DNA of 64,000 nt from Candidatus Brocadiaceae bacterium. GTDB taxonomy: Bacteria > Planctomycetota > Brocadiia > SM23-32. Of this stretch, positions 3,001-9,000 are shown piece after piece. The position numbers are program-made. Where the stretch lies: positions 16,677-80,676 of the forward strand of contig JAAYEJ010000019.1 in assembly GCA_012728835.1 (NCBI GenBank), written 5' to 3'. Numbering within the stretch: the stretch's first letter is position 1; each line of letters opens with the position of its first letter.

Positions 3001-6000
3001 GCCAGCCCCATCGCCACGTTCTTGATGGCGCCGCCGATGCCGCTGAGCACGTGACCGGTGAAGTGCGAGACGATGATGGCCGCCGGAATCAGCGTGAAGT
3101 CGCCCGCCACGGCCACCGTCTCGCAGTGCCGCAGGTTCACGGGCCGCTCCACGTGCAGGTTGCCGCGCAGGCCGTCCAGGAAGATCAACGGGCAGCCCAT
3201 CGCCTCGGGGCCGAACCCGTGCTCCACGGCCAGGTTGAAGTGGTCGACGGCGTTGTGCCTCTGGCCGCGATACAGCGTGGACGTCTCGACCAGGCAGGGC
3301 CGCCCGCACGCACGCTTGACCTCCTCCACGACAACGCGCACGCAGGCCGGCGACACGAAGCTGTCGTTGCCCCGCTCGCCGAAGTGCGTCTTCACGGCCG
3401 TGATGGCGCCCTCCGGGACCACCGCGCCCAGCCCGGCCGCCGCAAAGACCTCCCGCGTGCGGCGGCAGACGGTGCCCTCATCGGCCCCGTCCTCGAACGG
3501 AGCGAACCACACCGTGCTCCCCATACGACATCCCCCTCGTTTGAACGCTCTGAGAACCCGACGCGGCGTCTCCGCCCGAAGCCGCGCACGAGCATGGTGC
3601 CAGGAGCGGGACTCGAACCCGCACGGGCTTGGAGTGCCCATCGGTTTTTGAAACCGACGCGTATGCCTATTCCGCCATCCTGGCACGGTCCGCTGACCGC
3701 GGCCCCCCGGGGAGAACCCGGCGGCACCGGGTACCCAACTTACCCCAGGCCGGCCCGGAAGGCAAGCTCCCGAACGCCGCCGGCGGATCAGCCGGGGGGT
3801 TCCGGCGTGCGGTCCATGGAAGCCGCCCCGGGCTCCTCGACGGCCGCCGAGGACAGCACCGGCCCGTGCAGCCAGCGGTGCGGCCCCCCGGCCGCCGGGG
3901 CCTCGTCGGTCTCGAAGACCAGCCCGATAGGACCGACCTCGACGACGTCGCCCGGGCTGAGCGGTGCGGACTGAACAGGCTCGCCGTTGACCTTCGTACC
4001 CCACCGGCTGTTCAGGTCGTGGATGACGAAGCCGTCCTCGGTCTGCTCGACGACCGCGTGCGAGGAGGAGACGTGCTGGTTGGTGATGCACAGGACGTTC
4101 TCCGGGCTGCGCCCGATCGTCGTGCGCCCATCCAGCAGTTCGAACACGAACCCGCGCGGCAGACCGACCGCGGCCACGAAGCGCCCGCGCCGCCGGCGGG
4201 GTGCCTCCGCGATCTGCCGCAGGTTGACGTCGCGCTGGGGGAAGGGAATGGTAATCGCGTGCCGCCTGAACGCGTACCATATCTCCTTGCGCAGCTCGCT
4301 ATCGGTGGCCTCCGCAGCGGCGTAGTCGTCGATGTAGGCCCGCAGTTCGTAGATCAGCGCGGAATCCGCATAGTCCACGAAGTGCACGCCTGGGGCCGGG
4401 CTCTTCAGGACGCTGCCGACGCGTGCGGCCGCCTCCGTCAGCGCCCCGACGGCCAGCCCCGGCGGGACCTCATAGGCCACTCCCACCCGGACCTTGCGCA
4501 GATGCAGCGACGTGGGCCGCGTGTGGTTCAGAACGCGCTCCCGGATGATCACGCTGTTCGGGACCTCGACGTGATCGTTCTGGCGGGTCAGGATCTTCGT
4601 GACCCGCCAGCTCACCTCGGTCACCGCCCCCTCGACATCCTGAATCCGGATCCAGTCGCCGACCTGGAAGGGCCGCTCGGTGCTCAGAACGACGCCCGCC
4701 AGCACGTTGTGGAGCGAGTCCTGCACGGCCAGCCCGACGACGATCGACAGGGCGCCGGACGTGACGAAGACCGGCGTCAGGTCGAGGCCGGGAAACGCCC
4801 ACTTGATCAGGAGGAAGAACCCCAGGAACGCGCAGACCAGCACGGCCAGCTTGCGTATCAGCGGCGGCACACCGCCGCGCGTCCGCTGCGCCCCGTCCGG
4901 CAACGCCGCACGCGCCACGGCCACCAGCACCGACACGAACGCCGAAAAGGACGCCATGAACTGGGTGAGCCCCAGCAGCAGCCCGCCGCCCCGCAACGGC
5001 GTGGAGTGAACCGCCACCCAGGCCCCCACGCTCAGAACCGTCAGCACGGGCAGCAGCCAGATGTACCCGCGGACCATCCGCGCCCGCAGCATCAGGCGGG
5101 TGACCAGCACGGCGCCCAGCGCGACCAGGACGAACGTCAGCGCCGCCATGAGCCCGTCGTGCGACACCGCAGCGCTCGACAGCCGGCCCCGGCCGACCAG
5201 CCGCAGCAGCAGGGCCGGCACCACGCTCAGGAGCACGATCAGCACCGCGGCCGCCGGAGGGTCCAGCCGCCGCACCACCGGTTCCGACCGACGCCGACGC
5301 CGCTGGGGCCGTCTCAGCCGTAACAGGGCCCGCTTCAGCTCGTCCACGCTGCGGTAACGGTCCCCCGCCGATTCGGCCAGGCACCGGCTGATGACGGCAT
5401 CCATTGCGATGGGGACGTCATCCCGGACCATGCTCGGAGGCTTGAAGTGCCCGACCGGTGCCGTGGCGGTCAGCATCTCGTACAGGATGACGCCCAGGGA
5501 GTAGACCTCCGACTGCGCCGAGGCCCTGTGGGCATCCAGTTGGAGCTCGGGGGCCATGTAGTGGAAAGCCTCCGCCGAGCGCATGTCCCACATCATGGTG
5601 CCGGCGCCGACGCCCTCGGTCCGGAACGCGGCGATGGCGAAGTCGGAGATCCTGGCCCGGCCGGTCGCCGCATCCAGGAGGATGTTCGAGGGCTTCAGGT
5701 TGCCGTGCACCACGCCCTCGGCGTGGGCGCAGGCGAGGGCGTCGCAGACCTGGAGCGCGCAGTCCATCACGTCGGCGGGCGGCATCGGCCCCGCCCCCAT
5801 GGCCGTCGCGAGGCTCTGACCGTCCACATGCTCCATGACGGCGTAGAACGCGTCGCCGTCCCGGCCGCAGTCGATCACGGGGACGATGCCGGGATGCTTC
5901 AGCCGCGCCGCCACACCGACCTCGCGTTCGAAGCGCGCGAACGCCTCCGGGCCGCCGGCGAAGCGCTCCGCGAAGACCTTGACGGCCACCACCCGGTCGC

Positions 6001-9000
6001 GCGGGGGCTGCACCGCACGGAACACCTCGCCCGTGCTCCCCTCGCCAATCCGCTCCACGATCCGATACGGCCCCACCATCCGCGCCCCATCGCTGGGCAT
6101 ATGCCGCCTCCGGCAGACTGGGAACGTACGCCGGGCGACGTCGTCCGGCCTGCAGCGCACCGGCCGAAAGTCTACTGCGCGCACCCCGTGCGGTCAATGC
6201 GGCAGAAGCCCCAAACGGAACCAGCCGGAACGGACCCGGTCCGTCCGGCTGGCTCGCTTCCCGGCCGCCCTCCGGCCTCCGACGGCGGGAGGGCGCTGAG
6301 TCGGGGTCGCCCGAAGCCTCAGGCATTCGGCAGTTCGACCGCGCGGCCGCCTTCGGCCATGCTGGTCTCGGCGGCCTCCAGGAAGGCCATCACCTCCACC
6401 GTCTCCTCGATGTCGATCGGCGCCCGGCCGGTCTGGAAGAACGGCATGACCTTCTCGATCAGGCCCGCGTAGGCCGGGGGCTCGGAGGCCTGGACACTGT
6501 GGACCGCGCCGTCCTTGGTGAACAACGTGCAGCCGAACTGCCACGCGCCGAGGCGCAGGCCGCGCACGGTCCCGATGCGACCGTCTTCCCAGAGCCCGAC
6601 CATCAGGTCGGCGTCGTCGGTGTGGAAGGCCTGCACGCTCCGGCAGCCTGCACCCAGGTAGGCGTAGAGCACGTCGGCGCTGTGCACGCCGTACCAGTAG
6701 TAGGGGGGGTAATCGTCCAGGATGGCCATCGGGCCGAAGACCTCCGCCGAGCCGACCTTCTGATCCGCCCCGACCAGGCCGGCGACACCCTTCGCGTAGC
6801 GGATGGCCGAGCACGACATGACCGGCGCGCCGCGCTCGGCGGCCAGGCGGGCGATGGCGCGGGAGTCGGCCGTCGAGCAGGCCAGCGGCTTGTCGATGAA
6901 CACCGGCTTGCCGGCCCGGGAGATCACGTCGAACTGCTCCAGGTGCTGGCGGCCGTCGACGCTGTGCAGGAGCACGGCATCGACGTCCTTGCAGAGCGCC
7001 TCGATCGAGTCGTAGATCCTGACCTTGTGCTCGTCGCGGTAGGCGTCCGTGTATTTGCCCACCCGGCTGCGGCTCAGTTCCACCTGCTGGCTGCCCCCCG
7101 GGAACGCACCGATGATGCGCCCGCCGGGCACGTGGTACTTCTGGTCATCGTAGTTGATGAGCTTGATGAACGCCTCGACGTGCGAGGTGTCCAGTCCGAC
7201 CACACCGATCTTCAGGTCCGCCATTGTCCACTCCTTGGTCTGCCCACAGGCGCGAAACCACCCAGAACACGCACAACATACATACTCCGGCGCACAAGGG
7301 CAACGTCAGCCGCCGGATTGGCCGGCTCAGTCCGCCCGGCGTGCGGCCCCCAGGGCACCGGCAAACCGGACGATGACGCTGTACACCTCCGAGCGGGCGG
7401 TTATGTACAGCGTGCGGCCCTCCGGCCCGCCGAACACCAGGTTGGCGGGGCGCTCCGGCAGCGCGATCGTCTCGAGAGGCCGGCCCTCGGAGTCGAACAC
7501 GACGATGCCGTCGGCCCCGGCCACGTAGACGTTGCCGCGCACGTCCACCTTGAGTCCGTCGGGCCGCAGCCCGCCCGAGGGCTCCGTGCGGGCGAACACG
7601 CGCCCGTCGGCCAGCGTGCCATCCGCGCGCACGTCAAACGCCCGAAGCCACCCCCTGTCCGTGTCGGCGACGTAGAGCACCGTCTCGTCGGGCGAGAACG
7701 CCAGGCCGTTCGGCTTGACGAAGTCGTCTGCCAGCAGCGTGATCGCGCCGTCCGTCCCGACGCGGTAGACGCCGGCGAACGGCAGTTCGCGGTCCTCGGG
7801 CCGCACGCCGTACGGCGGGTCGGTGAAGTAGACGGCGCCGTCGGAGCGGACCACCAGGTCGTTCGGGCTGTTGAGCCGCTTGCCCTGGTAGTGGGTGGCC
7901 AGCGGCGTCACCGTGCCGTCGGGCTCCGTGCGCGAGACGCGCCGGTTCGCGTGCTCGCAGGCGAGCAGCCGCCCGCCGCCGTCGAAGACCAGTCCGTTCG
8001 CCTGCCCGCTGGGACGCCGGAAGACCTCCGGCCCCGCGTCCCTGAGCGCGTAGATCGTGTCGGCCGGAATGTCGCTGAACACCAGGTAGCCGTCCGGGTG
8101 TACGGCCGGCCCCTCGGTGAACCGAAGGCCCGTCGCCGCCACGGCGACCTCGGAGGACTGAAGCCGCCCGGACCCGGCGCCCGCCACGCCCAGAAGCACC
8201 GCCAGAACCGCCATCGCCGCCACGTAGCCCATCCCCGTCCTCCTTCTGCAGCCGCCGGCCCAGGCTCTGTCTGGGAATCCCTCCGGCTCCGGCCGGCCAC
8301 GAACCCTCAGACAGAGCCTAAAGCGAGGCCAGCCAGCCGCCGTCGACGTAAAGGACCTGTCCGTTCACGAACGACGAAGCGTCGGACGCCAGGAACACGG
8401 CCGCGCCGATCAACTCGGCCGGTTCCCCCCAGCGGCGCATGGGCGTGCGCCCGCGCACCCAGGAGTCGAACGACTCGTCCTCGCAGAGCGAACGCGTCAT
8501 CTCGGTGCGGAAGTAGCCGGGCCCGATGGCATTGACCTGCACATTGTGCGGACCCCACTCGACGGCCAGCGCGCGCGTGAGCATCTTCACCGCCCCCTTG
8601 CTGGCGGCGTAGGGGACAACGCCCGGCCGACCGCCCTCGCTCATGAGGGACGCGATGTTGATGACCTTGCCGGCCCCGCGGGCGACCATGCGCCGGCCGG
8701 CCGCCCGGCAGACGTGGAAGACGCCGTGCAGGTTCACGGCCATCAGCTCGTGCCACCGGCCGGTGGCGAAGTCGGCGAGGAGCCCGCGCAGGTTGACGCC
8801 GGCGTTGTTGACCAGGACGTCGACCGGCCCCGCGTCCCGTTCGATGGCGGCGACGGCCTCCTCCACCTCCTCCTCGACCGTCACGTCGAACACGGCGGCG
8901 CGGGCGCGCAGCCCCTCGCGTTGGATCCCTTCGACCGCCTCGCGGACCGCGTCGGACCGGCGCCCGTTGACGACCACCTCCGCACCGGCCCGCGCCAGGC

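Follow-up and report, generated by a model that had tools for sequence, protein, structure and literature searches.

A gene on the minus strand of the 64,000-nucleotide stretch analyzed here (contig JAAYEJ010000019.1, positions 16,677 to 80,676; hereafter the window) encodes a single polypeptide in which a Hanks-type Ser/Thr kinase domain, predicted to be catalytically dead, is followed by a mechanosensitive channel of the MscS superfamily and a C-terminal FHA domain. Comparison with related loci points to the fusion, in one lineage, of a membrane kinase with the channel encoded beside it, and the fusion exposes a small, undescribed family of bacterial MscS-FHA channels that is always accompanied by a Ser/Thr kinase. 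An earlier note on this DNA had presented the polypeptide itself as the finding; its reading of the architecture holds, but the informative unit is a conserved two-gene kinase/MscS-FHA module, of which the window protein appears to be a derived, fused form. The single polypeptide is a curiosity of one lineage, valuable as a "Rosetta stone" for this uncharacterized module, and the strict pairing of the two genes together with a natural fusion provides strong genomic evidence for a channel family under the control of Ser/Thr phosphorylation.

Domain architecture and integrity of the gene

The open reading frame (ORF) begins with an ATG at 6100 and ends with a TGA at 3790–3788, on the minus strand. 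The extent reported in the earlier note (3788–6100) was correct, while its length of 771 residues counted the stop codon: 771 codons encode a product of 770 residues. This product is deposited as NLW49785.1 under the bare name "mechanosensitive ion channel." Its parts, including the transmembrane (TM) helices, are as follows.

3788..6100, minus strand: complete gene, 770 codons plus TGA, predicted pseudokinase, six TM helices, MscS core and FHA domain (ORF and Pfam)
5309..6079, minus strand: Hanks-type kinase fold, residues 8–264, predicted pseudokinase (Pfam, PDB matches, AlphaFold2, identity to partner kinases)
5684..5707, minus strand: catalytic loop HGNLKPSN, residues 132–139, with R133G and D134N relative to HRD
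5636..5644, minus strand: DFA in place of DFG, residues 153–155, Mg-binding Asp retained and Gly lost
5195..5308, minus strand: Arg-rich juxtamembrane segment and TM0 (residues 284–302), with the fusion junction within residues ~270–312
4805..5155, minus strand: four peripheral channel TM helices, residues 316–334, 346–364, 378–400 and 414–432, in a YnaI-like layout of five TM helices
4676..4780, minus strand: pore-lining helix TM3, residues 441–475, containing GALSIVVGLAVQDSLHNVLAGVVL (NCBIfam, hydropathy, PDB, model, Foldseek)
4517..4720, minus strand: MscS beta-domain, residues 461–528 (MS_channel_2nd; modeled with high confidence, see below)
4250..4492, minus strand: MscS C-terminal alpha-beta domain, residues 537–617 (MS_channel_3rd; likewise modeled)
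3896..4165, minus strand: FHA domain, residues 646–735, with G663-R664, S678..H681, S698, G701-T702 and N705 intact
3791..3895, minus strand: disordered C-terminal tail, residues 736–770, with an HRWLH motif in common with close relatives

Pfam, NCBIfam and PDB searches agreed on a kinase, an MscS channel and an FHA domain in one polypeptide. Pfam matches, all exceeding the curated cut-offs, were obtained to Pkinase (PF00069; residues 12–222, E 5.9e-39), MS_channel_2nd (PF00924; residues 461–528, E 7.2e-20, 71.3 bits, cut-off 20.2), MS_channel_3rd (PF21082; residues 537–617, E 2e-11, 44.6 bits, cut-off 21) and FHA (PF00498; residues 660–723, E 6.6e-15). NCBIfam and PDB sequence searches returned PknB, PknE and StkP for the N terminus, MscK, MscM, YnaI and MscS for residues 420–632 (with the NCBIfam MscK, MscM and MscS alignments covering 421–632), and the FHA domains of GarA, Rv1747 and FhaA for the C terminus; PDB matches reached E values of 1e-31 to 1e-35 for the kinase part against PknE, StkP and PknB, and of 1e-18 to 1e-20 for the channel part against YnaI, MscM, MscS and MscK. 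The AlphaFold model of the channel and FHA parts had a predicted local distance difference test score (pLDDT) of ~90, and a Foldseek comparison of the channel model with solved MscK, YnaI and MscS chains gave a probability of 1.0 (E ~1e-15). By sequence and by modeled fold, the central region is thus a member of the MscS superfamily, as the earlier note had proposed, for which heptameric assembly and tension-gated conductance are predicted. The kinase part, modeled alone with a correct alignment, gave a confident kinase fold (pLDDT 87.9, predicted template modeling score 0.81); the pLDDT of 25–48 seen for this part in the full-length model was discarded as an artifact of kinase homologues misplaced under channel columns.

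Hydropathy indicated six hydrophobic TM segments (residues 284–302, 316–334, 346–364, 378–400, 414–432 and 441–471) and an N-in/C-in topology, which would place both the kinase and the FHA domain in the cytoplasm, on the same side of the membrane as had been anticipated. TM0, the first of these segments, occupies the position of the N-terminal signal peptide in the channels of relatives. The FHA domain, modeled as a high-confidence set of beta-strands over residues 635–735, retains its phosphate-binding residues; its G-R, S..H, G-T and distal N were invariant or nearly so in 25 family members including the window protein. In the cytoplasmic loop connecting the third peripheral TM helix to the fourth lies the strongly conserved motif R-T407-R-x-G-V-P-P-L-I-R (RTR, residues 406–408, at 4877–4885, minus strand), of which Thr407 is kept in 23 of the 25 members; on sequence grounds it is a speculative candidate for a phospho-acceptor or FHA ligand. 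A conserved phospho-motif in the C-terminal tail was also considered and rejected, the tails being variable and an HRWMH motif common to close relatives only.

The gene is real. Its 2313 nucleotides are 100% identical in five assemblies (the window and four others, from ENA and JGI), with a GFO_IDH_MocA gene constant on one side and a DUF362/Fer4 gene on the other, and in three of the five contigs the identical upstream region is covered as well; the other members of the protein's own sequence cluster showed a one-residue difference. No frameshift or split of the ORF, an eventuality raised in the earlier note, was found across these assemblies, and five identical assemblies argue that the gene is no artifact. 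That the whole gene is a nonfunctional relic, or a product of misassembly or frameshift joining separate genes, is accordingly very improbable. Its distribution, restricted to one population, would suit such an explanation, as would apparent frameshifts at related loci in long-read assemblies. In two near-identical strains, the partner kinase was called as proteins of 753 and 188 residues in one (L003:4011-7282) and as a single protein of 1102 residues in the other (L002:4012-7320), and protein P0008 has an Arg/Pro-rich out-of-frame tail in place of an FHA domain; both are probably assembly frameshift errors rather than biology. Against a relic or artifact stand the 100% identity of five separately assembled ENA and JGI contigs, the well-positioned Shine-Dalgarno sequence and start codon, a coherent topology, and the retention of 93% of family-invariant residues in the channel and FHA parts, where the changes are conservative only.

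The MscS-FHA family, its partner kinases and the probable fusion

Protein searches covered 5.8 billion proteins in a word-indexed search and 1.84 billion representatives in an exhaustive HMMER search. Among the 314 retrieved proteins listed, the combination of kinase, MscS and FHA domains occurred only in the near-identical cluster of the fusion protein itself, and giant proteins matched over multiple stretches by phmmer were tandem kinases without an MscS core; distant kinase-MscS fusions of independent origin may exist with scores lower than those of the matches listed. The nearest relatives of the window protein (55–63% identity) aligned only with residues ~314–759 and are MscS-FHA proteins of ~500 residues without a kinase; a C-terminal fragment, P0126, encoded on a contig of 997 nucleotides, was 73% identical. 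This family is small, comprising ~30 clusters in the 5.8 billion proteins, all from uncultured bacteria labeled Brocadiaceae, Lentisphaerae or CSSED10-310, and is carried by only three of 185,579 species-representative genomes.

A Ser/Thr kinase gene adjoined the MscS-FHA gene on the same strand in each of the 11 distinct contexts examined (loci L001, L002/L003, L004, L009, L010, L011, L012, L013, L016, L094 and L095). In the reference genomes, a kinase gene lay within 5 kb at 3/3 MscS-FHA loci as compared to 0/77 ordinary MscS loci. The intervals between kinase and channel genes ranged from −4 nucleotides (overlapping stop and start codons, L010 and L012) to 122 nucleotides, or measured 623–743 nucleotides where a small gene intervenes. 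The pairing was also recovered from the kinase side: an MscS-FHA gene lies immediately downstream of P0012 and P0009, which are among the best kinase matches of the global search, and P0013, another of these, appears to be the 577-residue kinase of L009, likewise followed by an MscS-FHA gene. In the closest relatives, the kinases are proteins of 1056–1102 residues consisting of a kinase domain, a TM helix and an extracytoplasmic FGE-sulfatase-like region, and the gene order is kinase-FGE-sulfatase, small lipoprotein, channel. The small gene (L001:7298-7948, L002:7340-7939 and L004:7450-7908) encodes 152–216 residues with a signal peptide followed by Cys, as in lipoproteins, and a coiled-coil-looking body; it matches no Pfam family and was restricted to the clade nearest the window.

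The most distant family member has its partner kinase (L013:7305-8249, plus strand) directly downstream of the MscS-FHA gene (L013:6001-7278). This kinase, a tail-anchored protein of 314 residues with no extracytoplasmic domain, is degenerate: its catalytic loop reads LLHRSLTPRN (HRD Asp to Ser, loop Lys to Thr), its Gly-rich loop GKAGQS, and DLG replaces DFG. It is a second, apparently independent loss of both catalysis and sensor domain, here in a separate gene, and its HRS motif suggests that a noncatalytic partner is viable. On another locus, in a complete 2.97-Mb genome contig, a RelA_SpoT-domain gene lies directly behind the MscS-FHA gene, and a second, TPR-containing kinase gene converges on it (L012:7456-9024 and L012:9025-11547); this arrangement is a hint that the module may be connected with stringent-response signaling in that organism.

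The best matches found anywhere to the kinase part of the window protein, at 48–51% identity, are the kinases paired with its closest channel relatives. Across ten loci, pairwise identities of kinases and channels covary (r = 0.87, 45 pairs), and the ten kinases, ordered by their similarity to the window protein, rank much as the ten channels do (rho = 0.92). All that the window protein retains of the kinase is its kinase domain, a juxtamembrane stretch rich in Arg, and one TM helix; it then passes into the channel just past the position of the signal peptide of relatives. Taken together, these features make it highly probable that a cognate kinase/channel pair was fused in a single lineage to give this protein. 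An in-operon deletion of ~3 kb probably removed the extracytoplasmic part of the kinase, the lipoprotein gene and the signal-peptide region of the channel, and would have linked kinase domain and channel by way of a single TM helix with the topology preserved, the surviving helix supplying the membrane-insertion signal that the channel lost. The junction is confined to residues ~270–312, TM0 aligning about equally weakly with the kinase TM helix and with the channel signal peptide. No remnants of the FGE-sulfatase part or of the lipoprotein were found by tblastn against the window, which returned only the two kinase domains.

Probable loss of catalysis and possible role of the kinase part

The motifs named in the earlier note were all found in place in the kinase part (GEGSTG at residues 19–24, VAVK at 38–41, HGNLKPSN at 132–139, DFA at 153–155 and MAPE at 182–185). 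HRD and DFG are present in 13/13 of the closest kinase homologues compared, as opposed to HGN and DFA in the window, and in a 37-sequence alignment the Arg and Asp of positions 133 and 134 are at least 90% conserved. K41, E60, N139 and D153, which are invariant columns of this alignment, are retained, as is Lys136. Beyond R133G, D134N and G155A, the substitutions include T170M, L176A/G177E/T178A in the P+1 loop, S183A (the SPE Ser), D198E in alphaF, and G22S/M23T/A24G in the Gly-rich loop. With the HRD Asp lost, the domain counts as a pseudokinase under the customary criterion, by which any one of the VAIK Lys, HRD Asp and DFG Asp is missing, and judged by these residues it is very likely to be catalytically dead. 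The earlier note had left the choice between a pseudokinase and an atypical kinase; the prediction of catalytic death is supported, while "atypical" understates a domain that has lost a third of its family-invariant positions and may be partly vestigial.

An atypical but active kinase, transferring phosphate by a noncanonical route despite HGN and DFA and autophosphorylating to make its own FHA ligand, is improbable. In its favor, the domain still possesses the Lys-Glu pair, Lys136, Asn139 and the DFG Asp, some kinases that have Asn for the HRD Asp keep weak activity, and a phosphothreonine ligand is required by the intact FHA domain. Set against this is the joint loss of the catalytic base, HRD Arg, DFG Gly, P+1 Gly-Thr, SPE Ser, alphaF Asp and three positions of the Gly-rich loop, all invariant or nearly so in 36 homologues. 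This breadth of loss fits relaxed constraint and does not fit a re-engineered active site.

Constraint on the two halves of the protein was compared at invariant positions between the window protein and seven locus-matched family members. The channel and FHA parts kept 84/90 invariant positions (93%; ordinary members, 76–96%), the six changes being all conservative, and the kinase part kept 65/98 (66%; ordinary members, 89–94%). In a three-taxon count, unique substitutions in the kinase numbered 71 in the window protein as compared to 23 and 30 in relatives, and in the channel 46 as compared to 36 and 63; the identity of the window kinase lies 2–4 standard deviations under the family regression. 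These patterns are consistent with normal purifying selection on the channel and FHA parts since the fusion and with a kinase part that has evolved far faster. The protein appears to represent a rare datable case in which an active bacterial kinase, having lost its sensor domain, became a pseudokinase.

In the mechanism that we propose for the family, the receptor kinase would create phosphothreonine sites on itself or on the channel, and the seven FHA domains beneath a heptameric cytoplasmic cage would dock onto these sites, thereby coupling envelope signaling to channel gating or bringing the kinase onto the channel. The domain tethered in the window organism would be unable to write the mark and would serve as a pseudokinase scaffold or a surface for docking; an intact, well-conserved FHA domain beside a dead tethered kinase implies that other kinases, acting in trans, write its phosphothreonine ligand. 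Regulation of the channel through phosphothreonine, proposed by analogy with systems described below, has in our estimate an even chance of being correct, and the pseudokinase could equally well be functional or not. The chain as a whole, that is, a real fused gene with a dead kinase, encoding a pseudokinase-tethered MscS channel regulated through phosphothreonine docking in trans, is the account toward which we lean by a little. The earlier note had suggested the stand-alone kinase encoded at 20160–21215 (plus strand) as the writer in trans, and this link gained no support: it is a generic tail-anchored kinase, 31% identical to the fused domain and encoded 14 kb away on the opposite strand. 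Its motifs are HRDVTPGN (catalytic-loop Lys to Thr) and DLG. As a specific partner it was rejected: it is 37–39% identical to the partner kinases, and neither its position nor its phylogeny connects it to the channel gene. It is presumably one of many possible trans kinases.

The main rival to a working pseudokinase, which we consider less likely, is that the fusing deletion destroyed the kinase and left a functionless, decaying leader. Its frame would survive only because the MscS-FHA part is translated from the kinase ATG and depends on the TM helix of the kinase side to replace its missing signal peptide. A domain deprived of one-third of its invariant positions, at catalytic, substrate-binding and noncatalytic sites alike, is what simple decay would give, and the excess of unique kinase substitutions (2.4–3 times that of relatives) and the restriction of the architecture to one population point the same way. 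Replacements at the 33 lost invariant positions had a mean BLOSUM62 score of −0.27 versus −0.59 for random single-nucleotide changes and were not significantly more conservative than these (P = 0.12). The open frame itself is uninformative about the kinase, because selection on the channel downstream would remove any stop or frameshift. Decay alone is harder to reconcile with the near-complete absence of insertions and deletions relative to partner kinases (none in frame over 264 residues, despite ~27% lineage-specific replacement), with hydrophobic invariant residues, 9/10 of whose replacements remain hydrophobic, and with a protein-like codon composition in the kinase part (G+C content of 0.50 at second codon positions, GC2, in a 71% G+C genome with 0.91 at third positions, GC3). 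K41, E60, N139 and D153 also survive, though they are no more protected than other positions under neutrality, and the kinase fold is confidently modeled. The degenerate, sensor-less kinase of L013 is kept as a separate gene, to which the leader argument does not apply.

In addition to the signs of decay just described, several observations weigh against the docking scheme and the fusion history as we propose them. The fusion is known from one near-clonal population only, and a ratio of nonsynonymous to synonymous substitution rates (dN/dS) is not computable because the gene is invariant across assemblies, leaving no within-population variation. In a neighbor-joining tree, the fused kinase sits on a long basal branch of the partner-kinase clade and falls inside the L001 clade in 16/200 bootstraps; we attribute this placement to the long branch, but the domain might instead descend from a related paralogue. 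The juxtamembrane threonines and activation-loop TxT of the partner kinases are largely gone in the fusion, which removes some candidate FHA ligands. The canonical Asn of the FHA "NGT" turn, which contacts the peptide backbone, is replaced by Trp700 in the window protein (4001–4003, minus strand), and across the family this position is 15 times His, five times Leu, three times Arg, and once each Trp and Ser; such a family-wide loss may alter peptide specificity or make it unusual. Finally, for every family member, phosphorylation and FHA ligands as well as channel activity and heptamerization are inferred.

A broader proposition, which we put forward tentatively, is that the kinase/MscS-FHA module represents the first bacterial mechanosensitive-channel family in Ser/Thr phospho-signaling. 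The kinase would set the gating threshold or inactivation through FHA docking, or the channel would be the tension input of a kinase pathway; the fusion would reveal physical contact between the partners and, together with L013, a noncatalytic allosteric pseudokinase ring. For testing phospho-regulation, the module offers an unfused active pair, a fused form with a dead kinase and a separate pair with a dead kinase.

Related systems and surroundings of the gene

The arrangement is reminiscent of PknF/Rv1747 of Mycobacterium tuberculosis, a two-gene operon in which an FHA-bearing ATP-binding cassette (ABC) transporter is activated by the operon kinase, for which other kinases can substitute (PMC3138270). 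In both cases a membrane transport protein with its own cytoplasmic FHA domain is encoded beside a membrane Ser/Thr kinase, as found in all 11 family contexts, and the FHA domain of Rv1747 is among the closest solved relatives of that of the window protein. Rv1747, however, is an ABC exporter whose two FHA domains are N-terminal, whereas the window protein is an MscS channel with a single C-terminal one, and the mycobacterial proteins are separate with an active kinase rather than fused with a dead one. In the mycobacterial pair, the FHA domains of the transporter read phosphothreonines that the kinase writes; by this logic, the family kinase would phosphorylate the channel and the FHA domain would bind those sites. 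A second parallel is MviN (MurJ), the pseudokinase domain of which is phosphorylated by PknB and then bound by the FHA domain of FhaA, regulating the membrane protein (PMC12599244). Like the window protein, MviN spans the membrane several times and carries a covalently attached cytoplasmic pseudokinase. Its pseudokinase, however, belongs to the old, conserved ActPs3 family, has lost ATP binding, is C-terminal and meets an FHA domain on a separate protein; that of the window appears to be a recent, single-lineage derivative of an active partner kinase, is N-terminal and shares its polypeptide with the FHA domain. The features of ActPs3 (VALT, no HRD, an aromatic-filled ATP pocket) are absent from the window kinase, which has kept VAVK as well as the Asn of the catalytic loop and the Asp of DFG and descends from the active "GHFKxPS" partner-kinase clade, so that the resemblance to MviN is one of analogy and not of family-level homology.

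Among channels, the bCNG proteins (cyclic nucleotide-gated, from bacteria) likewise combine an MscS core with a C-terminal cytoplasmic domain that binds a signaling ligand, implying a specialized, regulated role other than mere protection from osmotic shock. Their domain reads cyclic AMP or cyclic GMP and they have no linked kinase, whereas the FHA domain of the window protein is predicted to read phosphothreonine. Pfam gave no match to a cNMP_binding domain in the window protein, which places it outside the bCNG group; one bCNG-type protein, P0295, occurred among the distant matches. With YnaI, MscK, MscM and MscS of Escherichia coli the window protein shares the pore helix, beta-domain and alpha-beta domain, its five channel-part TM helices corresponding to the YnaI layout, but none of these carries an FHA or kinase domain, and the two pore-constriction leucines of E. 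coli MscS appear, by hand alignment only, as Ser and Ile. Arabidopsis MSL10 is also an MscS-family channel with a soluble N-terminal phospho-signaling element, in which seven phosphosites modulate cell-death signaling separably from ion conduction (PMC6261518). That system is eukaryotic, however, its N terminus is unstructured with no kinase fold or FHA domain, and phosphorylation affects cell death rather than gating.

For the numerous noncanonical MscS-like channels, both regulation and any function other than the relief of osmotic shock are a recognized gap; in a 2026 review of MscS-like gating the matter is called "poorly explored," with no mention of phosphorylation, kinases or FHA domains, and a 2025 review of bacterial pseudokinases does not mention a link to MscS channels. 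The literature searched yielded no description of MscS channels joined to FHA domains, Ser/Thr kinases or pseudokinases, and together with the protein searches above this upholds the earlier suggestion that the architecture is undescribed.

Two elements precede the fusion gene.

6107..6111, minus strand: Shine-Dalgarno sequence GGAGG, 6 nucleotides 5′ of the ATG at 6100 (direct sequence reading)
6169..6197, minus strand: sigma70-like promoter match TTGACC-17-TAGACT, 9/12 to consensus (consensus match only)

The promoter match (one observed versus 0.1 expected in shuffled sequence) lies ~70 nucleotides 5′ of the ATG, inside the 218-nucleotide gap behind the GFO_IDH_MocA gene, and the fusion gene may have its own promoter. 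The ATG at 6100 is favored as the start codon because the match sits downstream of an alternative GTG at 6184. No intrinsic-terminator-like site was seen 3′ of the gene. Both the source MAG and that of the closest relative are labeled Candidatus Brocadiaceae, yet the G+C content of the window is 71% and its GC3 ~0.91; the taxonomic label may be a loose one.

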